Source: an uncultured Eubacteriales bacterium (lineage in GTDB: Bacteria; Acidobacteriota; Aminicenantia; Aminicenantales; Aminicenantaceae). Taken from it: a stretch of 64,000 bases of DNA. The position numbers and the translations under genes were made by a program. The stretch covers positions 1,833 through 65,832 of the forward strand of contig CAYTBG010000002.1 in NCBI GenBank assembly GCA_964435925.1, read 5' to 3'. Positions 1-29,428 of the stretch are shown here, piece after piece (position 1 is the first letter of the stretch; each line of letters begins with the position of its first letter). The notes beneath the pieces were generated by a model that was not told where the DNA came from, searched no databases, and saw only the letters and a program-made list of their open reading frames with translations.

Positions 1-832
1 CGAGCATACGATCTTGCTCTATGATAAACAGGACCCACGGCAGAGCCAGTTCTCATATATGAAGGGTGAAGTCACAGACAGGGCTAAACTGAGCGAGGCT
101 TTTCGAGATGCAGATGTAGTGATACATCTGGCAGCTCTGCGGTCCCGTTACAACCATCTGCCGATGAAGGTGATGGAAACAAACATCTTAGGAACTTTCA
201 GTGTGCTCGAGGCAGCACGGAGCCAAGGAGTGGAAAAGTTGTTATTCTCCAGCAGCGACGCGGTTCTTGGAATAGCACAGAGTGTGAATGAGTTGGCTCC
301 CGAGTACGTACCGATAGACGAGAAACATCCCTTAAAGCCACAGGATCCTTACGGAATCAGCAAGATGCTAGGAGAGGAGATGTGCTGCTGCTATGCGGAA
401 GGATATGATATTGACATCATTGCCCTGCGGTTTTCGAACATTTTCTGTCCTGGGGACGAGCAAAAATATTTGACCGACGCAAAAGATCCATCAGCGAGGC
501 GTAAGTCCCTGTGGGCCTGGGTTCACGTGGAAGATGCAGTTTACGCTATTGTGTGCGCTCTTATGTCCGACCTGAAAGGGTATGATGTATTCCATATAGT
601 GGCTGAAGACGTATGTCTTTCGAATCCGAATATCCAGAATCTGATGGCTACTTACTTTCCTAAAACTCCAATTAGAAGACCTCTTTCCGATAAAGAAAGT
701 CTTATTGATTGCAGGAAGGCCAAGCATAAACTGGGCTTCCAACTGCGCAGTCGATTCGCCGAAGTGCTGACCATGGAAGATTCAGAGCCTCCTAGCAAGA
801 ATCATCGGGCGATTAAGGCCATGAAATCATAA
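1..832 (+). CDS. NAD-dependent epimerase/dehydratase (extended SDR), 5'-truncated by window edge; copy 1
   Basis: Frame continues from nt 2 with no stop (EHTILLYDKQ...). YxxxK catalytic motif present (PYGISK). Rossmann N-terminus lies outside the window; the paralog at 17144 shows VTGGSGKLAG upstream of the same region. Confidence 0.7.
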   Translation, partial: EHTILLYDKQDPRQSQFSYMKGEVTDRAKLSEAFRDADVVIHLAALRSRYNHLPMKVMETNILGTFSVLEAARSQGVEKLLFSSSDAVLGIAQSVNELAPEYVPIDEKHPLKPQDPYGISKMLGEEMCCCYAEGYDIDIIALRFSNIFCPGDEQKYLTDAKDPSARRKSLWAWVHVEDAVYAIVCALMSDLKGYDVFHIVAEDVCLSNPNIQNLMATYFPKTPIRRPLSDKESLIDCRKAKHKLGFQLRSRFAEVLTMEDSEPPSKNHRAIKAMKS

Positions 833-848
833 AGGTAACTAGATAATT

Positions 849-1820
849 ATGAAGATTGCGATAGTCTACCATCCGGCGCGAATGCGTGCGACCGAAGATA
901 AAATCCAAGGGTCACGCCGCAAACTCCTGTACCCCACTCTTACCCGCGTGCGCAAGGCATTCGAGCGTGCTCATAACAAGGTTGTGACTGTTGATGGACG
1001 AGGCAACCTGTTTGCGAAGATCAGGAGAGCCAAGCCAGATATAGTATTCAACTGGTACTCAATACCTGGCAGAGTCCAGTCATACGTACCTGCGATCTTG
1101 GAAAAGATGGGAATGCCTTACACTGGTTGCAGTGCTTTGTGCCATGCTCTGGCAATGCATAAGGGGCTGGCGGGTAAAGTCCTTCGATATGACAAGTTGC
1201 CGGTGCCGCAATTCGCCTTGGTCAATCGAAAACAACGGGAGCCATCTCGGCAGGTAGAATTTCCAATCCTGGTAAAGCCCTGCTCTTTAGGGGCGAGCGA
1301 AGGAGTATCAGAAGGGTCTTTTGTCGAGTCGGCCGAAGAACTGCCTGCAGCAATAGATGCTGTTCTTGCAGTAGACAAGGAAGCAGTCATAACAAAGTAC
1401 ATTCCTGGCCGCGAGATAACCGTCGGCGTCATCGGCAACAAAAAATTACAAATCCTGCCAATCCTAGAGAAACATTTCGAGACTAAGCGAGGAGCGCCTC
1501 GAATCTTTACAGAAAAGATGAAGAAGAAATCTACCCACTGGCAATATAACGTAACGGTACCTGAAATGAAAGCGGATGAGGAGACAGCTGTGAAGAAGGC
1601 AGCGACAAGGGCCTTTCGTTCGATTGGCTGTACTGACTATGCACGAGTGGACATCCGCCTGGATAAACAAGGGATTCCCTGGATTCTCGAGGTAAATACA
1701 CTCCCGGGGATTTATCCGAAATTCAGCCCAATGGCCAAGATGGCCAGTGAAATAGGCAAGCCAGCTGAGTATCTGGCCACGCGGATCCTAGAAGAAGCCG
1801 AAGAGAGGCACGGTCTATAA
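849..1820 (+). CDS. D-Ala-D-Ala ligase-family ATP-grasp enzyme; copy 1
   Basis: ATG 8 nt after the epimerase stop. Ddl-like motifs MPYTGCSALCHALAMHKG, FPILVKPCSLGASEGVS, GREITVGVIGN and ARVDIRLD...ILEVNTLPGI. N-terminal domain is atypical for Ddl (no GGxSxE). Confidence 0.7.
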   Translation: MKIAIVYHPARMRATEDKIQGSRRKLLYPTLTRVRKAFERAHNKVVTVDGRGNLFAKIRRAKPDIVFNWYSIPGRVQSYVPAILEKMGMPYTGCSALCHALAMHKGLAGKVLRYDKLPVPQFALVNRKQREPSRQVEFPILVKPCSLGASEGVSEGSFVESAEELPAAIDAVLAVDKEAVITKYIPGREITVGVIGNKKLQILPILEKHFETKRGAPRIFTEKMKKKSTHWQYNVTVPEMKADEETAVKKAATRAFRSIGCTDYARVDIRLDKQGIPWILEVNTLPGIYPKFSPMAKMASEIGKPAEYLATRILEEAEERHGL

Positions 1821-2064
1821 GAAGTGATCCCTGAGAGGGATTCGCTAGCCTTAGCAGGCAGTGCTCCCTGCGCGATTTTGGCCGCGAGAGCCTGGCCGCC
1901 TTGATGGCCAAAAGGCAGTAAATATATCACTTCGTCCCTTGCTGAGGAATGAGTACATGAGGTGGGAGCCCATTTTGAAAAACTCCATCACGAGACTCTC
2001 ATCAATGTGTCAAGTAAAGACAATCTTTGAATAGTCAAGCAAATTAAATCCTAGAACAAATAAT

Positions 2065-3216
2065 TTAATAGGATAGTTTTAAAATTTCTAAGACATCTTC
2101 CTTTTTCAGTTTCTTGAAGTTGCCAATCTCGCCAAAATAAACTGCCTTTGTTGCCATTTCTTCAAATTTTTCATAATTAATGTTTACTTGAGAAAATGTC
2201 TTTGGCATCTCTAAAGAGCTGAAAAAATCCCCTGTTTTTTGTATGCTTAAGTTAGCAATACCTGTTTTTTCTCCTGTATTAGGGATGTCCCACACGTTAT
2301 GAGCAAATTCTACAAATTTATTAACATTCTCGTTCATTACATATTTCATCCAGTTGGGAAACAGTATTGCCATGCCAACACCATGTGTTAGGTCATATAT
2401 TGCACTGACTTCATGTTCAATTTTGTGTGTTGCAAAGTCTCCCTTTTTGCCGAATGATAAAAGGCCGTTTAAGGCAAGACTTCCAGCCCACATTATGTTT
2501 GCTCTTGCTTCATAATCATTTGGGTTCGCTAAAACAATCGGTCCATACTTTATGCATGTTTTTAAGATGCCTTCAGCTAAACGATCCTGCAGATATGCTC
2601 CTTTTGTAGCATCGAAGTATTGCTCAAAAACATGGCTCATTATATCAACAATCCCTGCTGCTGTATGTGGTCGGGGCACAGTCATCGTATATGTTGGATC
2701 AAGTATTGAAAATTTTGGTCTTAGAAGATTTGATGTTATTGAGAGTTTTTGTTGTGTTTCTTCGTTATTGATTACTGCGCTTGCGTTTATTTCAGAAGCT
2801 GCTGCAGCCAAAGTCAAGATAGTTCCGATTGGAAGGGCCTTTTCTACTGTTGCTTTTCTCATGAATAAGTCCCAGACATCATCTGGATAATAGATCCCCG
2901 CCGCGATTGCTTTAGAGCAGTCTATAACACTCCCTCCTCCAGCAGCCAAGATAAAATCAACATTGTTTTCTGCGCATATCGTTATCCCTTTTTTTACACT
3001 TGAGAGTCTTGGATTTGGCTTTATTCCAGACAATTCGAAATATGTCTTATTTTTTAACGCATCAATAACTTTTTCATAGATACCATTTTTTTTGATACTC
3101 CCGCCGCCCCAAGCAAATAATATCCTGTTATAGTTTTTAATTTTGCTTTCTAAATTATTTATCTGGTCTTTGCCAAAAAGAATTTCTGTCGGAATTAGAT
3201 AGTCAAAATTTAACAT
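2065..3216 (-). CDS. iron-containing (group III) alcohol dehydrogenase
   Basis: 383 aa. GGGSVIDCSKAIAAG and downstream His-rich metal-binding region typical of Fe-ADH. Confidence 0.8.
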   Translation of the reverse strand: MLNFDYLIPTEILFGKDQINNLESKIKNYNRILFAWGGGSIKKNGIYEKVIDALKNKTYFELSGIKPNPRLSSVKKGITICAENNVDFILAAGGGSVIDCSKAIAAGIYYPDDVWDLFMRKATVEKALPIGTILTLAAAASEINASAVINNEETQQKLSITSNLLRPKFSILDPTYTMTVPRPHTAAGIVDIMSHVFEQYFDATKGAYLQDRLAEGILKTCIKYGPIVLANPNDYEARANIMWAGSLALNGLLSFGKKGDFATHKIEHEVSAIYDLTHGVGMAILFPNWMKYVMNENVNKFVEFAHNVWDIPNTGEKTGIANLSIQKTGDFFSSLEMPKTFSQVNINYEKFEEMATKAVYFGEIGNFKKLKKEDVLEILKLSY

Positions 3217-5065: not shown

Positions 5066-7282
5066 ATGAAGGGAAATAAAAAGTCGAAAGGTAAAATCAT
5101 TATTATTTCTAATAGACTGCCTGTAACGATAAGCAAAAGGAAAGATAAGCTGAAAATTCAACAGAGTCCGGGAGGATTGGCGACTTGTCTCCGTGCTATC
5201 CAAGAGGAGGAAAAGGCTATTTTTGTCGGTTGGCCTGGCTATTGGCCTGCAAACGTTGAAGAAAAAAGATTAATTGAGAACGACCTCGTAAATAACTACA
5301 AGAGCTATCCTATCTTTATTTCTCCAGCAGAAATCGGCAAATATTATTATGGTTTTGCAAACAGAACTCTCTGGCCTCTTTTTCATTATTTTTCGACTTA
5401 TTGTGCTTATGAAGAGTCAGAGTGGATTGCTTACAAAAGAGTGAATGAAAAATTTTTTCAGAAGGTATTCGATTTAGCCGATCCGCAGGATACCTTCTGG
5501 ATTCATGATTATCATCTTATGCTTCTTCCTGCTCTTATCAGAAAAAGTTTACCTCAAAGTGCAATTGGCTTTTTTCTGCATATCCCTTTTCCTTCTTCTG
5601 AGATATTTCGGACACTGCCGTGGCGAGAAGAGATTCTCGAAGGTTTCCTTGGAGCTGACCTCATAGGTTTTCATACCTATGAGTATGCTCAGCACTTTTT
5701 AAACAGCGTGTTGCTATTATTAGGATATGAACACGAGTTTGGAGAGATCCTTGTGGGCAACAGGATTGTAAGGGTAGAGAATTTTCCCATGGGGATCGAT
5801 TCCCTGGGTTTGAAGAATCTTCTGGAAGAGCCTTCAATACAGAAAGAAATCAAAAAGCTTGAGGAAAAAATATGGACAAAGAAGAGAAAGATCATTCTTT
5901 CTGTTGATCGCTTGGATTATACCAAAGGAATCCCGCAACGATTAAAAGGCATTGAGTTGTTTTTAGAGAAAAATCCCGAGTGGCACAACCGGTTTACTTA
6001 TATCATGTTATGTGTTCCCTCGAGGACTAAAGTTAAGCATTACTCTCTTCTCAAGGAAGAAGTTGATTCCCTGGTCGGAAGAATTAACGGCCGGTTTGGC
6101 GTGCCAGGTTGGATTCCTGTTCATTATATGTATCGTTCTCTTCCTTTTCATAAACTTTTCCCCCTCTATACTATAGCCGATGTTGCTCTCGTTACTCCCT
6201 TACGCGATGGGATGAATTTGGTTGCTAAAGAATACGTCACTTCTAAAAAAGATAATAAGGGTGTTCTTGTGCTCAGCGAGACAGCCGGGGCTGCTTCTGA
6301 ACTGGGAGAAGCCTTACTTGTTAATGTGAATAATAAAGAAGACATTGCCTCAGCATTGACTCAGGCTCTTGATATGAGTGAAGAAGAACAGGCAAGAGGG
6401 ATGGAATTAATGAGAAAGCGGCTCTTTGAATATGATGTGTTGCACTGGGCCAGAAGTTTTATCGAGAGAATTAAAGATGTTAAAAAAATTCAGTCTCAAC
6501 GTGAACATAGAAAGCTTAATGCAGAATGGGAGAAAAAACTCATATCTGATTTCAAAAGAAGTAAGAATCGACTCCTATTCCTGGATTATGATGGCACATT
6601 AGTTTCTTTTGCTACGAAACCTGAGCAGGCAAAACCAGATATAGGATTGATTAGGCTTCTTTTTTCAATGGGCAAGGATCCTCACAATACCTTGGTTATC
6701 GTTAGCGGAAGGGACCGGACAACAATAGAGCGCTGGCTGGGAAAGGTCCCTTGTGGTCTGGTTGCTGAACATGGTGCCTGGGTTAAAAGAGACGCTCGTC
6801 ATGGCTGGGAAAAGCAAAAGAGTCTATCCGGGGATTGGAAAGAACAATTAAAACCTATTCTCAAGACTTATGAATTTCGCGTTCCAGGTTCTCTGGTGGA
6901 AGAAAAAGAGTATGGAATTGCCTGGCATTATCGAAAGGCTAATCCAGAATTAGGTCAACTCAGGTCTGGTGAATTATTTGATTACTTAAATGAGTTTCTG
7001 GCCAATACAGATCTTCAGGTGATGCACGGCAATAAAGTTATTGAGGTGAGGATTTCTGGAATAAACAAAGGCAATGGTGTAATACCTTGGCTTTCTGAGA
7101 AAAGGTGGGATTTTATTCTTGCTTTGGGAGATGACTGGACTGATGAAGATCTATTTAAAATGTTACCAGCAACGGCTTATTCAATAAAAGTAAGCTACGG
7201 ACCGTCTCAAGCCAAGTTTTATCTGGAATCCCCCCAAACAGCCAGGAGTATGCTCCGTAAGTTGGTTAAAATTCAGAAATAA
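5066..7282 (+). CDS. otsA: bifunctional trehalose-6-phosphate synthase/phosphatase (OtsA-OtsB fusion; GT20 + HAD)
   Basis: 738 aa. N-terminal IIISNRLPV...GGLATCL GT20 signature. C-terminal LLFLDYDGTLV and GDDWTDEDLF HAD phosphatase motifs. Confidence 0.85.
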   Translation: MKGNKKSKGKIIIISNRLPVTISKRKDKLKIQQSPGGLATCLRAIQEEEKAIFVGWPGYWPANVEEKRLIENDLVNNYKSYPIFISPAEIGKYYYGFANRTLWPLFHYFSTYCAYEESEWIAYKRVNEKFFQKVFDLADPQDTFWIHDYHLMLLPALIRKSLPQSAIGFFLHIPFPSSEIFRTLPWREEILEGFLGADLIGFHTYEYAQHFLNSVLLLLGYEHEFGEILVGNRIVRVENFPMGIDSLGLKNLLEEPSIQKEIKKLEEKIWTKKRKIILSVDRLDYTKGIPQRLKGIELFLEKNPEWHNRFTYIMLCVPSRTKVKHYSLLKEEVDSLVGRINGRFGVPGWIPVHYMYRSLPFHKLFPLYTIADVALVTPLRDGMNLVAKEYVTSKKDNKGVLVLSETAGAASELGEALLVNVNNKEDIASALTQALDMSEEEQARGMELMRKRLFEYDVLHWARSFIERIKDVKKIQSQREHRKLNAEWEKKLISDFKRSKNRLLFLDYDGTLVSFATKPEQAKPDIGLIRLLFSMGKDPHNTLVIVSGRDRTTIERWLGKVPCGLVAEHGAWVKRDARHGWEKQKSLSGDWKEQLKPILKTYEFRVPGSLVEEKEYGIAWHYRKANPELGQLRSGELFDYLNEFLANTDLQVMHGNKVIEVRISGINKGNGVIPWLSEKRWDFILALGDDWTDEDLFKMLPATAYSIKVSYGPSQAKFYLESPQTARSMLRKLVKIQK

Positions 7283-7311
7283 AAAATTACTCCGATTTTT
7301 CCTGTGAAGAC

Positions 7312-7530
7312 TATCCTTTCAACCCTTATATCATATATATAATAATTTCAGCACAACTCAGCTGAATTTGACCCAAGAAATCGCGTTTTATTCTAAAATT
7401 TGCTTTTTCATTCAGAATATGTAAGAATACAAGAAAATGCGACTTAAATTTCTTTGATTCAGCACAAAAACCCCAATTTCTTTTAAGCTTTTTTTGTGAT
7501 GTTTTATTTTTTTTTCTAAGGAGATTTATT
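7312..7530 (+). promoter_or_regulatory. conserved ~215-bp non-coding leader element, copy A (promoter/5'-UTR candidate)
   Basis: Collinear, roughly 80% identical to 16611..16820. Starts just after a stop codon and ends at an AAGGAG RBS. Contains a conserved TTCAG...CTGAA hairpin and a TTGACC box. Confidence 0.4.
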
Positions 7531-7593
7531 ATGACACAAAAAGTAAAAACAGGAGATACAGTCAAGGTTCATTAGACTGGACGGTTTGAATAA
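7531..7593 (+). pseudogene. FKBP-type peptidyl-prolyl isomerase gene remnant (N-terminal 14 codons, then stops)
   Basis: MTQKVKTGDTVKVH*TGRFE* matches the FKBP N-terminal signature (K.GD.V.VHYTG.L.DG) but is interrupted by TAG and ends after about 20 codons. Confidence 0.35.
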
Positions 7594-7620
7594 GAACTTC
7601 ATATAAAAAAAAGAACAAAA

Positions 7621-8082
7621 ATGTTTACTTTTAAGAAAATTCTTTGGCCAACGGATTTTAGTGAGCCATCCTTTGAGGCGCTTAAAACAGCGAAAGAATT
7701 AGCCTCGCATTTCTCTTCCGAGCTATATCTTGTTCATGTTATCAGGCCAATGCCCCCTATTGTAGAAATTCCACGAGATCGGCCAAGCTTCAATGTTTCG
7801 TTGTATAGGAAAGAGCTCCGATCTTCCGCAGAAAAGTCACTCCAGGAAGTGATTAATAAAAAGGTTGGAAAAAGATTAAAAGTGCATGCTTTTGTTGCCA
7901 ACGGAGATGCAGCTGTTGAAATCAATCGCATTGCCAAAAGGGAACATATTGAACTTATTGTTATTGCAACTCAAGGTACCACTGGCAGGCGGAGTTTCTT
8001 TTTCGGGTCGGTTGCAGAGAAGGTGGTACGGATTGCCTCCACTCCTGTACTTACTATTAGATCTCCTCATAAAGAGGAATAA
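7621..8082 (+). CDS. universal stress protein (UspA family); copy 1
   Basis: 153 aa. ILWPTDFSE...LYLVHV...IVIATQGTTGRR...GSVAEKVVR, a typical USP ATP-binding pattern. Confidence 0.8.
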   Translation: MFTFKKILWPTDFSEPSFEALKTAKELASHFSSELYLVHVIRPMPPIVEIPRDRPSFNVSLYRKELRSSAEKSLQEVINKKVGKRLKVHAFVANGDAAVEINRIAKREHIELIVIATQGTTGRRSFFFGSVAEKVVRIASTPVLTIRSPHKEE

Positions 8083-8248
8083 TTAGTTTAGAGATTGGTT
8101 AATTAATTATGGAGGATCAGCATATTTTAGGTAACACATTTTATATGGGAATCGGTTGCACAATAGGCTGCGATTTTTCGCTTTAGATCTCTAAAAGGCG
8201 AAGAAGACTTTTCCCCTATTAATTGAAATATAAGGAGGCTTTAAAAGG

Positions 8249-8683
8249 ATGAAACGGAAATTTACACCAGCGCAGGTGACAGAGGGTAAGGTAGATTATA
8301 GCCTTGAAGAGTTTTTAAGGGATTTATGGGAAGATGTGAAATCTAATATATCCAAAGAGGTCCTTAATCGTCTGCCAGAAGGGAAAAAGAGAGACAGAAA
8401 ATATAATGAAGCGATAAGAGAAGTCTTTAATTTTGTATGTGATATCTGTTACTTGGCTGTGGTTGAGAAATCCTACTTGAAATTAGTGCTTAAACAATCT
8501 AACGAAGTGGAAAGAAAGCTTATAAAAAAGACAATTAAGGAGAATAAGAGCAATATTGATATGCTGTATGCTATCTTGAGGATGCATATAGCAAGAGGAC
8601 TCAAGGAGGGATTGACGAAGAAACAAGCTGTAAAAGCAACAGTTGAATATAGTAAGGAGTTAATTTCTAAATGGAGAAAGTAG
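8249..8683 (+). CDS. hypothetical protein (144 aa), conserved partner of UspA; copy 1
   Basis: Good RBS (aaggaggctttaaaaggATG). Paralog at 23133..23567 is nearly identical in its C-terminal half. Confidence 0.6.
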   Translation: MKRKFTPAQVTEGKVDYSLEEFLRDLWEDVKSNISKEVLNRLPEGKKRDRKYNEAIREVFNFVCDICYLAVVEKSYLKLVLKQSNEVERKLIKKTIKENKSNIDMLYAILRMHIARGLKEGLTKKQAVKATVEYSKELISKWRK

Positions 8684-8740
8684 GAATATAGGTTTAAAAA
8701 ACAAAGGATAAAACCTAAGCAAATTATAAAAGAAAATAAA

Positions 8741-13704: not shown

Positions 13705-15282
13705 ATGACCTTCCTCGATTGGATCATTATTATCCTGTATGCAGGCGGCCTCATCGTCCTGGGATGGTGGCTGGGACTCAAGCAGAAAACATCAGAAGAT
13801 TATTACCTGGCGGGAAGAAAGTTACCCTGGCTTCCCATAGGATTTTCCACTATGGCCACCCAACTGGGGGCCATTTCTTTTATCTCTGCTCCGGCTTTCG
13901 TTGCTCTTAGGGAAGGCGGCGGCATGATATGGCTGGGATATGAGCTTGCTCTTCCCCTTGCCATGATTGTCCTTATGGCTTTTCTTTTCCCTGTATTTCA
14001 TTCGCTTCGAATCATAAGCGTCTACGAGTTTTTAGAAAGGCGCTATGATGAGAAAACAAGGGTTGTGATGAGCCTTGTCTTCCAAGTAAGCCGGGGTTTA
14101 GCCACAGGAGTTACCATCTACGCTGCTGCTATTGTTCTCTCAGTGACCCTCCAAATTCCTCTCTCGATAACTATTCTCCTTATCGGCGCGGTGGCCGTTG
14201 TCTATGAGTTTTTCGGAGGAATCCATGTGGATATTGTCTCAGACACAATCCAAATGATTGTTATCTTCCTGGGAATAATCATAACCGGGTTGGTCGGCCT
14301 TCATCTTATCGGAGGATGGAGTTCGATTTCAGAGCTAATAGACCCTGCACGACTTGTCGCAGTGGATTTTTCTGCTCATGGACTTGGCGATAGCCAAGAT
14401 TTCGGGTTCTGGCCATTATTTCTTGGAGGCTTTTTTCTTTATGCTTCTTACTATGGCTGCGATCAAAGTCAGGTCCAGAGGGAACTCTCTGCCAGAAACC
14501 TTAAAGAATGTAAATTGAGCCTTCTTTTCAACGGTTTTTTCCGCTTCCCCATAGTCCTCGCCTACTGTGCTTTGGGACTCATCTTAGGAGCATATGTTGT
14601 CCAACATCCTGAATTCCTTGGGAATCTTCCTCAGGGAAGACCTGATTACCTCCTCCCCGCTTTTATCCTGGCAAAAATGCCTCCAGGAGTTGTAGGGTTG
14701 ATTTTTATTGCTATCATGGCTGCAGCTATGTCTTCCCTCGACTCTTCCATAAACTCTCTCTCTGCTGCCACTGTGGAAGACATCTATAAAAAGATCAGGA
14801 AAAGAAAGATAGAGCCAGGGCAAGAGATGAGATTATCCAAGATGTTTACGCTTTTTTGGGGAGTTGTCTGCATCGGATTTGCCTTTTTTGTTGGTGATAT
14901 TTCTCCTACTATCATAGAATCAATAAACAAAATCGGGTCTGCCTTTTACGGCCCTGTTTTTGCCGTCTTTTTGGCGGGAATTATCTCCTCAAAAGCCAAA
15001 CCTCTTCCCGCCATTGCTGGTCTTGTGAGCGGAGTAACTGGAAACCTCTTCCTCTGGCTTTTTGTGCCTTCAATCTCCTGGTTATGGTGGAATGCGATTG
15101 GATTTGCGCTCACGACTGCAGTCATTTTTTTGGGGAGCTTACTTTTCCAGTCAGCTTTCAAGAGCTCCTTCGAAATAAAAATCAGCCCTGAGGAAAGAGC
15201 CTGGAAAATAAGCTATGGATTATTGATCGTTTATGTTGCGGGGCTAATTCTCTTTTTAATTTTTTTCCCCAAGCTGTTTTAA
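13705..15282 (+). CDS. sodium:solute symporter family (SSF) transporter
   Basis: 525 aa. Multi-TM with the SSF pattern (GR.LPW...GFSTMAT.L.A.SF.S.PA). Candidate solute or proline-type importer. Confidence 0.75.
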   Translation: MTFLDWIIIILYAGGLIVLGWWLGLKQKTSEDYYLAGRKLPWLPIGFSTMATQLGAISFISAPAFVALREGGGMIWLGYELALPLAMIVLMAFLFPVFHSLRIISVYEFLERRYDEKTRVVMSLVFQVSRGLATGVTIYAAAIVLSVTLQIPLSITILLIGAVAVVYEFFGGIHVDIVSDTIQMIVIFLGIIITGLVGLHLIGGWSSISELIDPARLVAVDFSAHGLGDSQDFGFWPLFLGGFFLYASYYGCDQSQVQRELSARNLKECKLSLLFNGFFRFPIVLAYCALGLILGAYVVQHPEFLGNLPQGRPDYLLPAFILAKMPPGVVGLIFIAIMAAAMSSLDSSINSLSAATVEDIYKKIRKRKIEPGQEMRLSKMFTLFWGVVCIGFAFFVGDISPTIIESINKIGSAFYGPVFAVFLAGIISSKAKPLPAIAGLVSGVTGNLFLWLFVPSISWLWWNAIGFALTTAVIFLGSLLFQSAFKSSFEIKISPEERAWKISYGLLIVYVAGLILFLIFFPKLF

Positions 15283-16291: not shown

Positions 16292-16585
16292 ATGAATATA
16301 ATAAAGAACATACACAAGAAAGTCAGAATCATTGATGTTATTGATTCCATAATGAAGGCCCTAGAGCAGTTCGATGGATTTGATGCAACAGTAACGATGG
16401 AGTTGTTCAAAGAGAATCAAAAGATGGATGATAAGGAGCGGACTATCACAGGACTAGTGACTTTAATCGTCGGCAACTTGGGAGAAAATGCGGATTTGAG
16501 CGAGCAAGAAGTCGACTCCGTCATCCGCTTTGTGCTGAAAATCGGCCGTGAAGTGAGAAAAAGGGCAAAAAATAGGATAATGTAA
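16292..16585 (+). CDS. hypothetical protein (97 aa)
   Basis: ORF. Followed directly by the conserved leader element. Confidence 0.4.
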   Translation: MNIIKNIHKKVRIIDVIDSIMKALEQFDGFDATVTMELFKENQKMDDKERTITGLVTLIVGNLGENADLSEQEVDSVIRFVLKIGREVRKRAKNRIM

Positions 16586-16610
16586 GGAAAGCGACAGAAA
16601 AAAAGTGGAG

Positions 16611-16820
16611 ATTATCCTTTCAATCCTTATATCATAATTTCAGTACAATTCAGCTGAATTTGACCCAGAAATCGCATTTTATTTTAAAATTTGCTTTTCC
16701 ACTCATAATATGTAATAAATATAAGTAATGAGAATTAAATTCTTCTAATTCAGCACAAAAACCCCTGTTTCTGTTGAGCTTTTTTCGTGGTGTTGTATTT
16801 TTTTGTTAAGGAGCCCAATT
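16611..16820 (+). promoter_or_regulatory. conserved ~215-bp non-coding leader element, copy B
   Basis: Collinear with 7312..7530. Ends at an AAGGAG RBS before ATG 16821. Confidence 0.4.
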
Positions 16821-17096
16821 ATGGATAAAAAAATAATTTATCAGGAAAAGATTAAAGCTCAATTAGAAAAAGTGAGCCCCAAAATTTATAAATTAAAGGC
16901 CAAAGCCGAGAAGGTAAATGTAGTGGATGGAATTGATTATTACAAGCAGATTGAAAAATTAAAAGCAACGCGGGATTTGTTAAAATTGGAACTCCAGGAA
17001 CTTAAAGAGATTGAAGAGGAGCCAGATGGGGATCTCGAAAAAAGAATACAGAATTCCATGAATGATTTAGAAGAATCTTTAGATCTTGATATCTAA
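16821..17096 (+). CDS. hypothetical coiled-coil protein
   Basis: ATG at 16821 with RBS aaggagcccaattATG. The ORF-track start at 16803 lies inside the conserved leader. Heptad-like KL/EL repeats. Confidence 0.5.
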   Translation: MDKKIIYQEKIKAQLEKVSPKIYKLKAKAEKVNVVDGIDYYKQIEKLKATRDLLKLELQELKEIEEEPDGDLEKRIQNSMNDLEESLDLDI

Positions 17097-17143: not shown

Positions 17144-18049
17144 GTGAAAAAGATAAAACTGGTTGTAACGGGCGGAAGCGGAAAATTGGCCGGATACCTC
17201 ACACCCGTGCTTGCACGCGAGCACGAGATCTTGCTCTATGATAAACAGCGACCATAGCAGAGCCAGTTCCCATATATGAAGGGTGATATCACAGATAGTG
17301 CTAAACTGAGCAAGGCTTTTCAAGGTGCAGACGGGGTGGTACATCTGGCAGCTCTGCGGTCCCGTTGCAACCATCTGCCGATGAAGGTGATGGCAACAAA
17401 CATTTTAGGAACTTTCAGTGTGCTCGAGGCAGCACGGAGCGAAGGAGTGAAAAAGTTGTTATTCTCCAGCAGCGACGCGGTTCTTGGAATAGCACAGAGT
17501 ATGACTGAGTTTGCTCCCGAATATATACCGATAGACGAGAAACATCCCTTAATGCCACAGAATCCTTACGGAATCAGCAAGATGCACGGAGAGGAGATTT
17601 GCCGCTGCTTTACGGAAAGATATGATATAGATATCATTGCCCTGCGGTTTTCGAACATTTTCTGTCCAGGTGATGAGAAAAAGTATTTGACTGATGCAAA
17701 AGATCCATCAGCAAGGCGTAAGTCCCTATGGGCCTGGGTGCACGTAGATGATGCAGTTTGCGCCATTGTATGTGCTCTTGCGTCCGACCTGAAAGGGTAT
17801 GATGTATTCCATATCGCGGCTGAAGATGTTTGTCTTTCGAATCCGGATATCCCGAATCTGTTGGCTACTTTTTTTCCTAAAACGGAAATCAGAAGACCTC
17901 TTTCTGATAAAGAAAGTCTTATTGATTGTAGCAAGGCAAAACATAAACTGGGCTTCCAGCTGCGCAGAAGATTCGCCGATGTGGAAGGCATGGAAGGTTC
18001 AGAACCTGCTAATAAAAATCATCGGGCGATTAAAGCCATGAAATCATAA
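17144..18049 (+). pseudogene. NAD-dependent epimerase/dehydratase copy 2, disrupted by an in-frame TAG at 17255..17257
   Basis: GTG 17144 to VTGGSGKLAGYL Rossmann motif, then ...LLYDKQRP-TAG. Copy 1 has CGG at that position. The remaining ORF (17276..18049) lacks the NAD-binding N-terminus. Confidence 0.55.
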
Positions 18050-19145
18050 AGGTAACAAGCAAATTATGAAGATTGCGATAGTATACCAGCCGACGAGAAT
18101 GCGTGCAACCGAAGATAAAATCCATGGATCATGCCGCAAACTCCTATACCCCACTCTTACCCGTGTGCGCAAGGCATTCGAACGTGCTCCTCACAAGGTT
18201 GTGACTATTGATGGACTCGGCAACCTATTTGCGAAGATCAGGAGAGCCAAGCCAGATATAGTGTTCAACTGGTACTCAATGCCTGGCAGAGTCCAGTTAT
18301 ACGTACCAGCGCTCCTGGAAAAAATAGGAATGCCTTACACTGGTTGCAGTGCTCTGTGCCATGCTGTGGCAATGCATAAGGGGCTGGCGGGTAAAGTCCT
18401 TCGATATGACAAATTGCCGGTGCCGCAGTTCGCCTTGGTCAATCGAAAACAACGGGAGCCATCTCGTCAGGTAGAATTTCCAATCCTAGTGAAGCCCTGT
18501 TCTTTAGGGGCGAGCGAAGGAGTATCAGAAGAGTCTTTCGTCGAGTCAGCCGAAGATCTGCCAGCAGCAATAGATGCTGTTCTTGCAGTAGACAAGGAAG
18601 CAGTCATAACAAAGTACATTCCTGGACGCGAGATAACCGTCGGCATCATAGGAAACAAAAAATTGCAAATCCTGCCAATCCTAGAGAAGCGTTTCGAGGC
18701 TAAGCGAGGAGCACCTCGAATCTTTACAGAAAAGATGAAGAAGAAATCTACCCACTGGCACTATAACGTAACAGTGCCTGAAATGAAATCGAATGAGGAG
18801 ACAGCTGTGAAGAAGGCAGCGACAAGGGCCTATCGTTCGATTGGGTGTACTGACTATGCGCGAGTGGACATCCGCCTGGATAAACAAGGGATTCCCTGGA
18901 TTCTCGAGGTAAATACACTCCCAGGGATTTATCCGAAATTTAGCCCAATGGCCAAAATGGCCAGTGAAATAGGCAAGCCAGCCGAGTATCTGGCTATGCG
19001 GATCCTAGAAGAAGCAATGGAGAGAAATGGTTTATAAGAAGTGGTCTCTGCGAGGGATGTGCTAGCTTAGCAGGCGGTGCTTCCCGTGTGATTTTGCACG
19101 TGGGAGCCCAGTCCCCTTGATGATCAAAATGTAGTAAATATATCA
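17208..19145 (+). repeat. segmental duplication unit A2
   Basis: See unit A1. Confidence 0.8.
18066..19037 (+). CDS. D-Ala-D-Ala ligase-family ATP-grasp enzyme; copy 2
   Basis: Same length and motifs as 849..1820. Protein differs at only scattered positions. Confidence 0.7.
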   Translation: MKIAIVYQPTRMRATEDKIHGSCRKLLYPTLTRVRKAFERAPHKVVTIDGLGNLFAKIRRAKPDIVFNWYSMPGRVQLYVPALLEKIGMPYTGCSALCHAVAMHKGLAGKVLRYDKLPVPQFALVNRKQREPSRQVEFPILVKPCSLGASEGVSEESFVESAEDLPAAIDAVLAVDKEAVITKYIPGREITVGIIGNKKLQILPILEKRFEAKRGAPRIFTEKMKKKSTHWHYNVTVPEMKSNEETAVKKAATRAYRSIGCTDYARVDIRLDKQGIPWILEVNTLPGIYPKFSPMAKMASEIGKPAEYLAMRILEEAMERNGL

Positions 19146-19161
19146 CTTCGTCCCTTTTCAT

Positions 19162-20883
19162 TTGGAGGCAACATATATGTGTGGAATTGCTGGAATAATA
19201 AGTAAAAACAACCAAAAAAGAATAGGTAACCTTCTCAAAAGGATGCTCCAAACAATGCAACATCGCGGTCCTGACGGGGCAGGTTTTACGATTGGAGGAG
19301 TTGTTGAACGGAAGAGAAAGTTAAACGACCTGAATTTTGATGGGAAAGAAGGGAACATTGGTTTGGGTCACGTTAGATTAGCTATCACCGGAGGCATGGA
19401 CGGGATGCAGCCGTTCCAGGAAAATAACGGTCGCCTTAGCCTTTTACATAATGGCGAAATATATAATTACCGAAAACTACGTTCAGAACTAAATGGCAAT
19501 TATGAATTTGAAACAGATACTGACAGCGAAGTCATCTTAAAGCTTCTGGAAAAACACTATGAGGGTGATTTATCTACTGCAGTAAAACAGATATTACCTA
19601 AACTTGATGGTGTCTATGCTCTGGCAGTTACCGACAATAAACAGACCGTAATAGCTCGTGACAAAATCGGTGTGCGTCAACTTTATTTTTATGCTGATGA
19701 TGAGTATTTTGCCTTCGCCTCCGAAAAGAAGCCTCTAACATCGATTTGCGGTAATTTCGGAAAAATTCGTCGTCTCCTTCCAGGACACATGATTGCTGTA
19801 GAAACAAACAATGTCCGAGAATTTATATTTTGGACGCCTGAATCAATTTGGTCAATGCGGTACATTAATGATAGGAAAGAAGCACTTAAAGCTTACAATC
19901 AAGCTATAATGGACTCCATTATAAAAAGAACTACTGGCCAAAAACGAGTAGGAGTAATTTTTTCAGGAGGAATTGATAGTTTTCTAATAGCTCATATGCT
20001 TAAGAGTCTAAATATTTCTTTTACCTGTTATACAGCCGGTAGAAATGGAGCATCGGACGTTGAGTGGGCGTGTAATTTAGCAAATAAATACAATCTCTCC
20101 ATAAAAATAAAACAACTTACGTTAGACGAAATAGAAAACCTTATCCCACAAATAATAATGGATATCGAAGACTATAGTTTGAATCAAGTTGAGGTAGCAA
20201 TTCCGATATACGCATCCGTCCGGATGGCTCAGGAGAATGGTGAGAAGGTAATTTTAACTGGTCAGGGAGCTGATGAACTCTTTGGTGGTTATCCCTGGTA
20301 TTCAAAAATTGTTGATCAAGAAGGCTATAAAAGTTTCGAACGATACTCTTGGAACGACACCTTTCTCTTGTATAAGGAATGTTTAGAACGGGAGGACAAA
20401 ATAGCGATGGCACACAATATTGAACTAAGGGTTCCTTATCTGGATCCCGCAGTAATAAAAGCAGCCTTCCAAATTTCCCCCAAATTAAAAATTTTGTGTG
20501 ATAATGATCAACTGGGGAAGAGAATTCATCGTGAATTTTGTGTATCAGTCGGAATACCTGAAAAAATAGCATTTCGTAAAAAAGAAGCGGCTCAGCACGG
20601 CGCTAATATTCATAATGTATTTGAAATATTGGCCAGTAGAACTGGAGTTAATAAAGCCCATTTGGAAAAGGCTGGATACGATCCTAATGAATCTATTATG
20701 GAAAAGCTCGGTAGTTCATCTCGTTACGGATTCCGTTATGGTGATCACCATCTGTGGGAGCCCATGCCTCACATGCAATATTATCTCGACTCCCATGCTA
20801 GTCGTATTAATTTCCTTTCACCAAAATCAAAAAGCCATTGGGAAGAAATAACCTGCAGGCTAGAGGCTAAAAGTATCATTTAA
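19162..20883 (+). CDS. asparagine synthetase-like glutamine-hydrolysing amidotransferase (AsnB/AsnO family)
   Basis: N-terminal nucleophile MCGIAG (class II GATase). PP-loop SGGIDS in VGVIFSGGIDSFLIAH. 573 aa. Confidence 0.8.
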   Translation: MEATYMCGIAGIISKNNQKRIGNLLKRMLQTMQHRGPDGAGFTIGGVVERKRKLNDLNFDGKEGNIGLGHVRLAITGGMDGMQPFQENNGRLSLLHNGEIYNYRKLRSELNGNYEFETDTDSEVILKLLEKHYEGDLSTAVKQILPKLDGVYALAVTDNKQTVIARDKIGVRQLYFYADDEYFAFASEKKPLTSICGNFGKIRRLLPGHMIAVETNNVREFIFWTPESIWSMRYINDRKEALKAYNQAIMDSIIKRTTGQKRVGVIFSGGIDSFLIAHMLKSLNISFTCYTAGRNGASDVEWACNLANKYNLSIKIKQLTLDEIENLIPQIIMDIEDYSLNQVEVAIPIYASVRMAQENGEKVILTGQGADELFGGYPWYSKIVDQEGYKSFERYSWNDTFLLYKECLEREDKIAMAHNIELRVPYLDPAVIKAAFQISPKLKILCDNDQLGKRIHREFCVSVGIPEKIAFRKKEAAQHGANIHNVFEILASRTGVNKAHLEKAGYDPNESIMEKLGSSSRYGFRYGDHHLWEPMPHMQYYLDSHASRINFLSPKSKSHWEEITCRLEAKSII

Positions 20884-20897
20884 AGGAGGCGTATACG

Positions 20898-22097
20898 ATG
20901 AAAATAGAAATCCCTAGAGAAATAGATCGATTTGGAGCGATTCGCTTTTATGGTTTACAAAAGGTATTCGAACTGGACTCAGGCCTAAAAGAAGATAATC
21001 CCCTAAATCAGATCGCAACTATCCAGCAAATCCCTTACGAGGCGTTTTATGAGATTCAAAAAGAGATGGCTATTATAGTCCCAATACGTAATGAGCGCCT
21101 TAGGCTGATTGAGGGTGTTTTATGTGGTATTCCTCATAAATGCCTTATTATTATGGTATCAAATAGCCCCCGAGGACCCATTGACCGCTTTAAGATAGAA
21201 CAAGAAGCGCTGGAAAATTTCTGCATTTTTGTCAACAAAAAAGCTATTATAACCCACCAAAAGGATCCACACTTAGCCAAGGCCTTTGAAAAAGCCAATT
21301 ATACAAATATCTTAAACAAAAATGGAGAGGTCCGAGACGGTAAGGCAGAAGGCATGATTATTGGAACTATACTTGCCTGGCTTGCCGAAAAAAAGTACGT
21401 TGGATTTGTTGATGCTGACAATTACTTCCCCGGTGCGGTGGAAGAGTATATTCGCGAATATGCAGCTGCCTTTTCTATGAATAACCCCCCTTATTCGATG
21501 GTACGAATTGCCTGGCAAAGCAAGCCCAAGATTGTTGAAAAAAAGCTTTTTTTTCGGAAATGGGGCAGAACTTCAGAGAATACCAATCGTCTATTAAATA
21601 AAATGCTAAGTCATTATTACGGATTTGAAAGTGAGTTAATTAGAACCGGAAATGCTGGAGAACACGCAATGACAATAGAATTGGCAAAACTTTTGGACTA
21701 TTCAGCCGGTTTCTCAGTGGAGCCTTACCACATCATCAATCTTGTTGAGAAATTTGGCGGCATTAAAGAAAGCCCATTCCCAGAAGTGATGAAAAAGGGT
21801 GTCGAAGTTTTCCAGATAGAGTCCCGAAATCCGCACCTTCATGAGGCGGGCGAAACAGAACACGTTGATAAGATGAGCTATGTAGCAATGCAGGTGATAT
21901 ATCACTCGTCTATCTGTCCCGATAAATTCAAAAGGGAAGTCTATAATGATATGATCAGGCGAAAATTTTTATCGAAAAGCAACAAACCACCTCGTCCGGT
22001 TAAATTTCCTGCATTGAACACAATTGATAAAAATAGTTTCTTTGAAAATATTAAATCAGCACCTTATGCCAAAGTTATTAAGGAAGTAAAATTCTGA
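20898..22097 (+). CDS. mpgS: mannosyl-3-phosphoglycerate synthase (GT55)
   Basis: Motifs recalled from Pyrococcus MpgS: GAIRFYGLQKV, IVPIRNERL.L.EGVL.GIPHKC.IIMVSNS, HQKDP.LAKAF, GK.EGM, GFVDADNYFPGAVEEY..EYAA.F, MVRI.W..KPK, F.KWGR.SE.TN, GNAGEHAMT, EPY.II.L, FQIESRNPHLHE. Confidence 0.65.
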   Translation: MKIEIPREIDRFGAIRFYGLQKVFELDSGLKEDNPLNQIATIQQIPYEAFYEIQKEMAIIVPIRNERLRLIEGVLCGIPHKCLIIMVSNSPRGPIDRFKIEQEALENFCIFVNKKAIITHQKDPHLAKAFEKANYTNILNKNGEVRDGKAEGMIIGTILAWLAEKKYVGFVDADNYFPGAVEEYIREYAAAFSMNNPPYSMVRIAWQSKPKIVEKKLFFRKWGRTSENTNRLLNKMLSHYYGFESELIRTGNAGEHAMTIELAKLLDYSAGFSVEPYHIINLVEKFGGIKESPFPEVMKKGVEVFQIESRNPHLHEAGETEHVDKMSYVAMQVIYHSSICPDKFKREVYNDMIRRKFLSKSNKPPRPVKFPALNTIDKNSFFENIKSAPYAKVIKEVKF

Positions 22098-22369: not shown

Positions 22370-22502
22370 ATGAGTAAAACGACGGTGTGGCTGAATAATC
22401 CTACTCATGGGATAAGGCACAAACCTCTAGGTGGACGGCCAAGTGACATAGACCCATGAATGTTTGGTCGAGTACCCCATAAACCTTAAAGAAAGAACAA
22501 AA

Positions 22503-22961
22503 ATGATTATGTTTAAGAAAATTCTTTGGCCAACCGATTTTAGTGAGCCATCCTATGAGGCGTTTAAAACAGCGAAAGAATTAGCCTTGTATTTCTCTTC
22601 TGAGCTATATCTCGTTCATGTTATCACACCCATGCCCCCTCTTGTGGAAATTCCGCGAGATCGGCCAAGCTTTAATGTTTCGTTGTACAGGAAAGAGCTC
22701 CAATCTTCCGCAGAAAAATCGCTTCAGGGAGTGATTGATAAAAAGGTTGGAAAAAGATTAAAAGTTCATGCTTTTGTTGCCAATGGAGATGCAGCTGTTG
22801 AAATCAATCGCATTGCCAAAAGGGAACGTGTTGAGCTTGTTGTTATTGCAACTCAAGGTACTGGCCGGCGACATTTCTTTTTAGGATCGGTTGCTGAGAA
22901 CGTGGTGCGGTTTTCCTCGACTCCCGTACTTACTATTAGAGCTACTCATAAAGAGGAATAA
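22503..22961 (+). CDS. universal stress protein (UspA family); copy 2
   Basis: The ATG giving MIMFKKILWPTDFSE aligns with copy 1's start and shares the upstream aagaacaaaaATG. The ORF-track start at 22464 is probably too early. Confidence 0.8.
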   Translation: MIMFKKILWPTDFSEPSYEAFKTAKELALYFSSELYLVHVITPMPPLVEIPRDRPSFNVSLYRKELQSSAEKSLQGVIDKKVGKRLKVHAFVANGDAAVEINRIAKRERVELVVIATQGTGRRHFFLGSVAENVVRFSSTPVLTIRATHKEE

Positions 22962-23132
22962 TTAGTTTAGAGATTGATTCATGAATTATGAGGGAGGATC
23001 AGCATAATTTTAGATAATGCATTTTACATGGGAGTCGGGTGCATCTTAGGCTGCGATATTTTGCTTTCGGCTCCCTAAAGAACGAGGAAGAATTTATTAA
23101 TGGAAATTGAAATATAAGGAGATTTTAAAAGG

Positions 23133-23567
23133 ATGAAACGGAACTTTACACCAACACAGGTGACAGAGGGTAAGATAGATTATAGCCTTAAAGAGTTTTT
23201 AAGAGACTTATGGGAAGAAGTAAAATCTAATATACCCAAAGGGGTCCTTAATCATCTACCCGAAGGGAAAGAGAAAGACAGAAAGTATAACAAAATAATA
23301 AGAGAAGTCTTCAATGTTGTATATGAGGTCTGTTACTTGGCTGTGGTTGAGAAATCCTACTTGAAATTAGTGCTTAAACAATCTAACGAAGTGGAAAGAA
23401 AGCTTATAAAAAAGACAATTAAGGAGAATAAGAGCAATATTGATATGCTGTATGCTATCTTGAGGATGCATATAGCAAGAGGACTCAAGGAGGGATTGAC
23501 GAAGAAACAAGCTGTAAAAGCAACAGTTGAATATAGTAAGGAGTTAATTTCTAAATGGAAAAGATAG
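23133..23567 (+). CDS. hypothetical protein (144 aa); copy 2 of 8249..8683
   Basis: Same length; high identity to copy 1. Confidence 0.6.
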   Translation: MKRNFTPTQVTEGKIDYSLKEFLRDLWEEVKSNIPKGVLNHLPEGKEKDRKYNKIIREVFNVVYEVCYLAVVEKSYLKLVLKQSNEVERKLIKKTIKENKSNIDMLYAILRMHIARGLKEGLTKKQAVKATVEYSKELISKWKR

Positions 23568-23635
23568 AAACATATGTGTAAAAAACGAAACGTGACAGTT
23601 TTAGGGAAGAAGATAATAAAAGATAAAAGTATGTC

Positions 23636-29149: not shown

Positions 29150-29428
29150 GAAAGATACTTTTTATAAATGTTTTTAATTTATTATCTTCTATAATTTGCA
29201 TATCATATCTGATGTTTGAATTCAAGTTTGTCACCGCCACCTCATTGATAAGTATAAACAGATGAGGCTGTAAGGAAAAAAAGAAGAGAATAGAGGATAG
29301 TGGGGTCAGCCCTTAGCAAAATGAAGGTTGAAAAATCAGAGGTTGATGTGTTTTTCTCTCCAATAGCAAGGTCTGACCCCGACTACGTATATAAAGGAGG
29401 TTAAGGAGAAGGAGGTTTAATTCTTCTT

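Follow-up and report, generated by a model that had tools for sequence, protein, structure and literature searches.

Why would one bacterial genome carry nearly the same noncoding sequence twice, each time directly ahead of a different gene? The question is raised by a 64-kb stretch of contig CAYTBG010000002.1 from an uncultured member of Candidatus Aminicenantes, hereafter the window, in which an earlier sequence-only reading had pointed out two noncoding stretches of ~215 bp, one leading an FKBP gene stub (copy A) and the other a coiled-coil gene (copy B). Based on the analysis described here, the repeat is probably a lineage-specific promoter-plus-leader heading two stress/osmoadaptation operons.

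Two leader copies and their relatives

Aligning the window with itself (blastn) matched copy A (7304–7542) to copy B (16605–16833) at 80.5% identity over 241 nt with an E-value of 6e-54, and MAFFT yielded 83% identity, confirming that the two stretches align end to end. An exact 17-mer (TCAGCTGAATTTGACCC) and an exact 18-mer (ATTCAGCACAAAAACCCC) are confined to the two copies within the 64 kb, where the chance expectations for such exact blocks are 0.30 and 0.05. As leaders, both on the forward strand, copy A spans 7304–7530, between the stop codon of OtsAB (7280–7282) and the start codon of the FKBP stub (7531–7575), and copy B spans 16605–16820, between the stop codon of a 97-aa open reading frame (ORF; 16583–16585) and the coiled-coil gene (16821–17096). 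Each follows its upstream stop codon, as described before, at a distance of ~20 nt, and each ends in AAGGAG, a 7-nt spacer and ATG (AAGGAG at 7518–7523 and ATG at 7531 in copy A; 16808–16813 and 16821 in copy B). The same contig holds a third, 3'-partial copy ~400–560 nt before window position 1, where it precedes a paralogous coiled-coil gene; it is found in L001 (8590–8755), a Joint Genome Institute (JGI) contig that is identical to window positions 1–2921 and extends the window upstream.

Leaders from relatives were collected by three routes: from contigs encoding coiled-coil homologs, by a search of genome contigs with the coiled-coil protein alignment (which returned only 3 loci, two of them useful), and by a metagenome scan with a pattern of 22 core bases. 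The block statistics given below are restricted to the 12 leaders retrieved through proteins, which are hence free of the bias of the DNA pattern. The collection comprises ~28 distinct genuine leader versions in related Aminicenantes contigs, drawn from many metagenomes and two named Aminicenantes metagenome-assembled genomes; standing ahead of orthologous genes, they occupy two positional classes. C-type leaders, to which the third copy belongs, precede a coiled-coil–epimerase–ATP-grasp operon; A-type leaders stand directly after the trehalose genes (OtsAB) and precede an FKBP/SlyD-like–Usp–145-aa(–rpoD) operon. Copy A is an A1-type leader with orthologs at the same position in L006–L009 (91% identical), L003, L018, L034, L038, L041 and L043. 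From about −50, relative to the predicted transcription start, to the Shine-Dalgarno sequence the A- and C-types are ~73% identical, and farther upstream they are not alignable. Both paralogous leaders persist across lineages whose coiled-coil proteins are 70–86% identical to that of the window, and the leader is kept while the first gene behind it decays repeatedly, be it by truncation or start-codon loss in FKBP or by deletion of the coiled-coil gene; both observations speak for a function of the leader. The sequence-only reading had proposed that a promoter and 5' leader serve as a common regulatory region ahead of different genes, a view to be given up if related genomes held no further copies; the ~28 versions in relatives argue in its favour.

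Copy B turned out to be a mosaic of the two types. Its segment ~16637–16750 is 88–96% identical to A2-type leaders (L003, L034) and the sequence from ~16750 onward is 88–93% identical to C2-type leaders (L039, L023), so that the segment-wise identities place the type switch at or just past a conserved mini-ORF (see below). By blastn, copy B matches the A2-type leader of L003 (17488–17655) at 91% and the window's own copy A at 82%, indicating that the similarity between A and B is not that of a simple recent duplication. Copy B probably arose through a 14.9-kb extra segment combined with recombination inside the conserved core, and the segment identities show that homologous recombination between A- and C-type leaders has taken place. 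A leader in L027, with a C-like 3' part before FKBP, likewise combines elements of both classes.

These findings bear directly on whether the similarity could be a mere by-product of segmental duplication, with no function of its own. The copies do lie within a larger rearranged duplication, in which 1–1940 (epimerase, ATP-grasp) matches 17218–19156 at 90% and 7606–8705 (Usp, 144-aa protein) matches 22488–23589 at 89%. Moreover, the second locus is partly decaying, with an epimerase pseudogene, and the 80% noncoding identity is no higher than that of the neighbours. However, A and B are not mutual closest relatives, copy B being nearer to the A2-type leader of another lineage, and their flanks are not collinear; both leader types are conserved, as orthologous copies, in relatives without the duplication. 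Conservation within the leaders is furthermore block-wise, a pattern that fits functional blocks, unlike uniform recent ancestry. A pure duplication by-product is on these grounds highly improbable.

Hardly any credence can be given to the idea of a mobile regulatory cassette, also put forward from the letters, or of a miniature inverted-repeat transposable element (MITE) that inserts a promoter before genes. Leaders do swap gene contexts, as seen for copy B, with its A-type 5' part before a coiled-coil gene, and for L027. In addition, a core-only copy comprising the −35, the TG/−10 and the start of the mini-ORF occurs in L040 (7778–7838), with mreB (reverse strand) on one side and an rpoD-like gene on the other, which suggests that in another lineage a sigma-70 gene, too, is served directly by the promoter module. 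Against dispersal, the element occupies only two sites per genome, both ancestral; an nhmmer search with a core profile over the window and all fetched loci detected no copies beyond the two orthologous positions and L040, and none further within the 64 kb. The metagenome pattern matched beside coiled-coil or FKBP genes only, apart from L040 and three unrelated matches. The boundaries showed neither terminal inverted repeats nor target duplications, and homologous recombination inside the shared core accounts for the exchanges between contexts.

Predicted promoter architecture of the common core

The core common to both leader types would constitute a sigma-70 promoter, made up of an AT-rich UP-like tract, a TTGnnT −35 hexamer, a 17-bp spacer and a TG-extended −10 of the form AAnAAT. 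On the forward strand of copy A, the AT-rich tract (TTTTATTCTAAAAT, 7386–7399; pairwise identity 0.83) adjoins the predicted −35 TTGCTT (7400–7405; identity 0.82, with 4/6 columns invariant), which reads TTGAAT in the C-type. The predicted extended −10 (7420–7428) consists of TG (7420–7421), a T and, 17 bp past the −35, AAGAAT (7423–7428). This is the best conserved block, with pairwise identities of 0.98 for the 3' spacer containing the TG and 0.94 for the −10. Next comes an 8-nt discriminator (7429–7436) of fixed length and variable sequence (identity 0.61; 0/8 columns invariant), and conservation then rises again to a pairwise identity of 0.88 over the following 15 nt (ATG nGn nTT AAA TTy, corresponding to mini-ORF codons 1–5). 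Within these, TTAAATT is invariant in 11 of the 12 leaders, L045 reading TTAGATT. The core promoter predicted for copy B (16691–16719, forward strand) comprises TTGCTT (16691–16696), TG (16711–16712) and AATAAA as −10 (16714–16719). Given the usual 6–9 nt between a −10 hexamer and the start, transcription is predicted to begin at ~7436 (7435–7437) in copy A and at ~16727 (16726–16728) in copy B.

The nearest known counterpart would be an ordinary promoter of the extended −10 kind followed by a conserved leader. Sigma-70 promoters of E. coli and Bacillus feature TG-extended −10 elements and AT-rich UP-like tracts, and it is by comparison with them that the tract is labelled UP-element-like. Like these, the leaders have a TTG at −35, a 17-bp spacer, a TG one base before AAnAAT, an AT-rich tract upstream and a discriminator of fixed length and variable sequence, and the −10 hexamer keeps A2 and T6 everywhere except in copy B. 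As a consensus match, TTGCTT-17-AAGAAT in copy A and TTGCTT-17-AATAAA in copy B have both the hexamer spacing of 16–18 bp and the TG at −15/−14 expected of an extended −10 promoter, and the block identities show the expected combination of conserved elements with a variable spacer and discriminator. In the C-type copy, a promoter scan independently flagged TTGAAT-17-AATAAT preceded by a TG (L001, 8631–8659). Unlike the sigma-70 paradigm, the A-type leaders have a weak −35 and the initial transcribed region is unusually conserved; the consensus used is that of E. coli and Bacillus and may not be that of this uncultured phylum.

Several points weigh against the promoter-plus-leader reading. The promoter scan did not flag copies A or B, whose −35 TTGCTT matches TTGACA at only 3/6 positions, and the promoter elements are all read by consensus. 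The −10 of copy B ends in A, where all other protein-derived leaders end in T; AATAAA may mark a weakened promoter in a decaying duplicate. The strong conservation from +1 to +21 is not explained by a promoter alone, and the invariance seen across the whole collection is inflated at the 22 core bases fixed by the metagenome pattern. Among close relatives, the leader has diverged more quickly than four-fold degenerate sites of OtsAB, with identities of 0.90 versus 0.94 between the window and L006 and of 0.75 versus 0.90 between the window and L034, the latter because the leader types differ. Constraint on the leader is patchy and confounded by recombination, and because leader types have been swapped between lineages the four-fold benchmark is uninformative.

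Other readings of the same letters were considered as well. An alternative promoter, TTGACC-N19/20-TAAAAT, has too long a spacer, and its TTGAC is not conserved (TTGGCA, TTAACA and TTACCA elsewhere; absent in L013). A sigma-54 reading of TTGCT lacks the GG at −24. Comparison by eye with the consensuses of CIRCE, HAIR, the CtsR box and sigma-32 gave no adequate match.

Upstream of the core, A-type leaders and copy B, and only these, carry a further module (7304–7385 in copy A, forward strand), predicted to extend from about −135 to −50 relative to the transcription start. It contains TATCCTTTCAACCCTTATATC (7312–7332), a TTCAGC-N8-GCTGAA palindrome (7347–7366) and TTGACC (7368–7373), and is conserved in close A-type orthologs, partly replaced in L026, wholly replaced in L032 and absent from the C-type. 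We propose that this module is a regulator-binding or upstream promoter region. With the start predicted downstream of it, the ~100 bp that precede the core, palindrome included, would act as regulatory sequence at the level of DNA and not of RNA.

Alternatively, the segment from +1 to +21, the upstream module, or both might be operator DNA for a transcription factor, for example a stress or osmotic regulator, with the mini-ORF incidental. The conservation at the nucleotide level is consistent with this, above all the TTAAATT shared by 11/12 leaders, as are a near-palindrome, GAATT-A-AATTC, in A2-type leaders and copy B, and the TCCTT repeated at 10-bp spacing that accompanies the TTCAGC/GCTGAA palindrome in the A-type upstream module. 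On the other hand, the two leader types share no conserved palindrome, no regulator gene recurs consistently beside them, and the by-eye comparison with the CIRCE, HAIR and CtsR-box motifs was negative. We therefore treat an operator as a minor possibility that is rather less than probable.

Under the promoter-plus-leader reading, the shared architecture would place both operons under common transcriptional control. For sediment lineages, with Aminicenantes among those studied, making trehalose has been suggested as a common mechanism of long-term subsistence (PMC6469976). Aminicenantes abound in marine sediments and are uncultured, and a leader common to the Usp/(rpoD) and the coiled-coil/epimerase/ATP-grasp operons would offer a first testable handle on the co-regulation of their stress genes, together with a concrete promoter model for a phylum without genetics.

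Predicted leader transcript and mini-ORF

The predicted transcript would open with a six-codon mini-ORF lacking a Shine-Dalgarno sequence, and continue through an unstructured, U-rich leader of ~60 nt that ends in the strong AAGGAG. In copy A, the U-rich part spans 7458–7530 on the forward strand, including the AAGGAG and its 7-nt spacer to the ATG at 7531, and holds no detectable structure. The sequence-only reading had suggested a structured 5' untranslated region, that is a riboswitch, an RNA thermometer or a leader resembling a small RNA, and had called for an Rfam scan; at the gathering score this gave 0 matches over the whole window, and E-value scans gave only chance-level hits (E > 1) around copy A and none with E <= 1 around copy B. 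RNAalifold predicted 0 pairs on 24 leaders. Folding z-scores of four representative leaders (−0.40, +0.99, +0.82 and −0.29) were no better than those of shuffles, with a mean of −0.12 over 25 leaders. The Shine-Dalgarno sequence has a pairing probability of 0.70, compared with 0.69 when the upstream part is shuffled, and the range across orthologs is 0.18–0.98 (25 leaders).

We further examined three hand-picked helices: a hairpin in the mini-ORF, CACAAAA/TTTTGTG, and TTGAG/CTCAA flanking the Shine-Dalgarno sequence. The first two showed 0 compensatory pairs, with ~70% of cells paired and ~30% broken. The third shows some changes on both strands, but these track the single split between A- and C-types and need a register shift. 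The palindrome TTCAGC-N8-GCTGAA, located at 7347–7366 in copy A and 16639–16658 in copy B, had been described as a hairpin maintained despite substitutions. This was overstated: among 12 A-type sequences there are 0 compensatory changes and 11/72 broken cells, the 3' arm decays in the more distant orthologs L020, L037, L038 and L041, and the sole arm change between A and B is a G-U-compatible C to T. Situated ~80 bp upstream of the predicted start, the palindrome could under the promoter model act only as DNA. Thus, neither the 24 aligned leaders nor the hand-drawn helices nor the palindrome provide convincing structural covariation among homologs.

A structured cis-regulatory RNA, such as a riboswitch, a fourU- or ROSE-like thermometer or an element resembling a small RNA, is consequently very unlikely. 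It would draw on the U-rich tract, which is able to pair with AAGGAG, on complementary pentamers around the Shine-Dalgarno sequence (UUGAG/CUCAA in the C-type, UAAGC/GCUUA in A1; AAUAGA/UCUAUU in A2) and on the two-sided changes of the third helix. Against this stand the lack of an Rfam match, of any RNAalifold pair and of z-scores away from 0, Shine-Dalgarno pairing equal to that of shuffled controls, and the helices and palindrome without compensatory changes, those of the third helix amounting to one event. Like fourU and ROSE thermometers, the leaders place a U-rich stretch upstream of a strong Shine-Dalgarno sequence and before chaperone and stress genes; unlike them, they have no conserved, marginally stable hairpin sequestering that sequence. 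Likewise, the leader joins no Rfam family, and neither compensatory changes nor folding energy mark it as a novel structured RNA. The main value of the analysis is this negative one, the repeat being no new riboswitch or thermometer.

The mini-ORF, which coincides with or adjoins the predicted transcription start, is conserved. On the forward strand it reads ATG CGA CTT AAA TTT CTT TGA (MRLKFL) in copy A (7437–7457) and ATG AGA ATT AAA TTC TTC TAA (MRIKFF) in copy B (16728–16748). The ATG is kept in 28/28 genuine distinct leaders and the length of six codons plus stop in 27/28, the exception being L040 with 17 codons (MSFKFLKAAKYSSILFG). The ATG and part of the mini-ORF are fixed by the metagenome search pattern, and the 12 protein-derived leaders agree. 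The consensus is M-[R/S/G]-[L/I/F]-[K/R]-F-[L/F/P]-stop, with MSFKFF in 12 distinct leaders, MRLKFP in 6 and MRIKFL in 4; MRLKFL (copy A), MRIKFF (copy B), MRFKFF, MGFKFF, MSIKFL, MSFRFF and the 17-codon variant of L040 occur in one each. Start, frame and stop are hence conserved across relatives, as expected of a leader peptide. Synonymous codons are used for Arg (CGA/CGT/AGA), for Phe5 (TTC/TTT) and for the stop (TAA/TGA), and L045 has a K to R exchange. No Shine-Dalgarno sequence was found upstream of the mini-ORF ATG. Separated from the predicted −10 by a fixed 8 nt, the AUG would lie no more than 2 nt from the 5' end of the transcript or right at it, as in leaderless mRNAs.

Such conservation raises the possibility that the mini-ORF is the functional centre of the element, a leaderless six-codon leader peptide whose translation or stalling tunes the downstream operon at the level of stability or translation. 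Such a role would extend the promoter-plus-leader reading and does not exclude it; we regard it as tentative and on balance doubtful. Consistent with it are the retention of ATG, frame and stop at codon 7 in all genuine leaders but L040, the synonymous variation at Arg, Phe and stop, the conservative exchange in L045, a position 3 that is always hydrophobic, and the −10-to-ATG distance, which a leaderless AUG predicts. However, the mini-ORF has no Shine-Dalgarno sequence, its variable sites are spread evenly over the codon positions (3/3/3) and so lack codon periodicity, its position 2 varies among R, S and G, and six codons carry very little statistical power. Nor are there terminators or alternative hairpins to couple translation with read-through: the leader scans found no forward-strand terminator-like site, and no consensus structure suggests an antiterminator or a masking of the Shine-Dalgarno sequence.

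A precedent comes from mycobacteria, where leaderless short ORFs upstream of operons are documented (PMC4633059; bioRxiv 10.1101/834739). The mycobacterial ORFs resemble the mini-ORF in being very short, in lacking a Shine-Dalgarno sequence, in having the AUG at the (here predicted) 5' end and in forming the first cistron before an operon. The mini-ORF differs in showing no run of a single amino acid and no attenuator structure, in belonging to another phylum and in being read from sequence. If translated, it would add a case of control by a leaderless upstream ORF outside Actinobacteria.

A second resemblance, offered as a lead only, is to macrolide-arrest peptides such as ErmDL (PMC8298421): the A-type peptide M-R-L/I-K-F carries a +X+ motif (Arg-X-Lys) right after the start codon. 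In contrast to ErmDL, the first basic residue is missing from MSFKFF, the most frequent C-type peptide, the genes downstream serve stress and osmolyte functions and not resistance, and there is no hairpin sequestering the Shine-Dalgarno sequence that stalling could open.

In the proposed mechanism, the conserved segment from +1 to +21 would be one of two things: a leaderless mini-ORF that is translated, or else an operator or an initial-transcribed element, which is about as likely as a translated, functional mini-ORF. A more far-reaching version, which we consider decidedly speculative and unlikely, is that a leaderless ORF of the form M-R/S-(L/I/F)-K-F-(L/F/P) stands at the 5' end of chaperone/Usp/sigma-70 and osmolyte-related transcripts, where the nascent peptide, in A-type leaders with its Arg-X-Lys arrest-type motif, might serve as a sensor borne by the ribosome, responding to translation stress or a small molecule, and set downstream expression without an RNA switch.

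Genomic setting and neighbouring elements

At locus 1, the gene order is leader C, coiled-coil, epimerase, ATP-grasp, Fe-ADH (reverse strand), TreT, OtsAB, leader A, FKBP stub, Usp and 144-aa protein. At locus 2, it is leader B, coiled-coil, epimerase pseudogene, ATP-grasp, AsnB-like, mannosyl-3-phosphoglycerate synthase, Usp, 144-aa protein and RpoD. The relatives L006–L009 have locus 1 only, in the order leader–FKBP–Usp–145-aa–RpoD with RpoD directly after, indicating that the ~14.9-kb unit with leader B is an addition in the lineage of the window. The second Usp/144-aa copy (22488–23589, forward strand; 89% identical to 7606–8705) marks the end of this 14.88-kb unit. The two Usp/144-aa copies form direct repeats of 1.1 kb, spaced by 14,882–14,884 and bracketing the 14.9-kb segment absent from L006–L009. 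This segment looks like either a tandem duplication that later diverged or DNA of a related lineage integrated via recombination in Usp–144-aa.

The FKBP/SlyD-type stub behind leader A (7531–7575, forward strand; MTQKVKTGDTVKVH, 14 codons) is a remnant of the first gene of the ancestral operon. Decay of this gene is recurrent: the window and L034 share an identical truncation past codon ~20, and the start codon is lost in L006 (ATA), L026 (ACG) and L038 (ATC), whereas a full-length FKBP follows the A-type leader in L003, L027, L041 and L043. Leader A now serves, on the forward strand, two intact genes, one for Usp (7621–8082; Pfam Usp, E 7e-26) and one for a 144-aa protein (8249–8683) to which no function is assigned. 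The coiled-coil gene behind leader B (16821–17096, forward strand) encodes 91 aa and matches no Pfam family. The protein family appears to be almost restricted to Aminicenantes, and homologs from named Aminicenantes metagenome-assembled genomes place the organism of the window in this group. Among its genes, RpoD and a BamD/YfiO homolog mark it as bacterial. L023 (~1632–1712, reverse strand) and L036 have lost the coiled-coil gene through a precise deletion between two short GCTCAA repeats, after which the Shine-Dalgarno sequence of the leader abuts the 3' end of the former coiled-coil gene, before the epimerase.

In the epimerase of locus 2, the start codon has changed from ATG to ATA (17153–17155) and an in-frame TAG (17255–17257) replaces the CGG of locus 1. 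What remains is a 257-aa ORF (17276–18049) without the N-terminal Rossmann GxGxxG, the Pfam match beginning at profile position 47. This gene is probably a pseudogene, in line with a partial decay of the duplicated locus. The compatible-solute modules of the two loci differ within the same leader-headed framework: locus 2 (18066–22097) combines an ATP-grasp protein (D-Ala-D-Ala-ligase-like), an AsnB-type amidotransferase and mannosyl-3-phosphoglycerate synthase, and its counterpart at locus 1 consists of TreT and an OtsA–OtsB fusion.

The three unrelated matches of the metagenome pattern (L017, L022 and L029; also L033, L035 and L042) all read ATGTGC(C/A)TTAAATT at positions that the pattern left free. 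Being more alike than chance expects, they may belong to another conserved element with no relation to the leaders.

Finally, a different noncoding element of ~175 nt recurs at 79–88% identity in the window (29240–29418), L001 (8420–8589), L010 (10244–10418) and L004 (12519–12697). It has no Rfam match and a fold z-score of −0.6. Just upstream of leader C it is present in L001, L003, L006 and L023 and absent in L004. It occupies differing intergenic places across genomes, carries an inverted repeat (GGGGTCAG...CTGACCCC) and may be a mobile element of MITE-like type.

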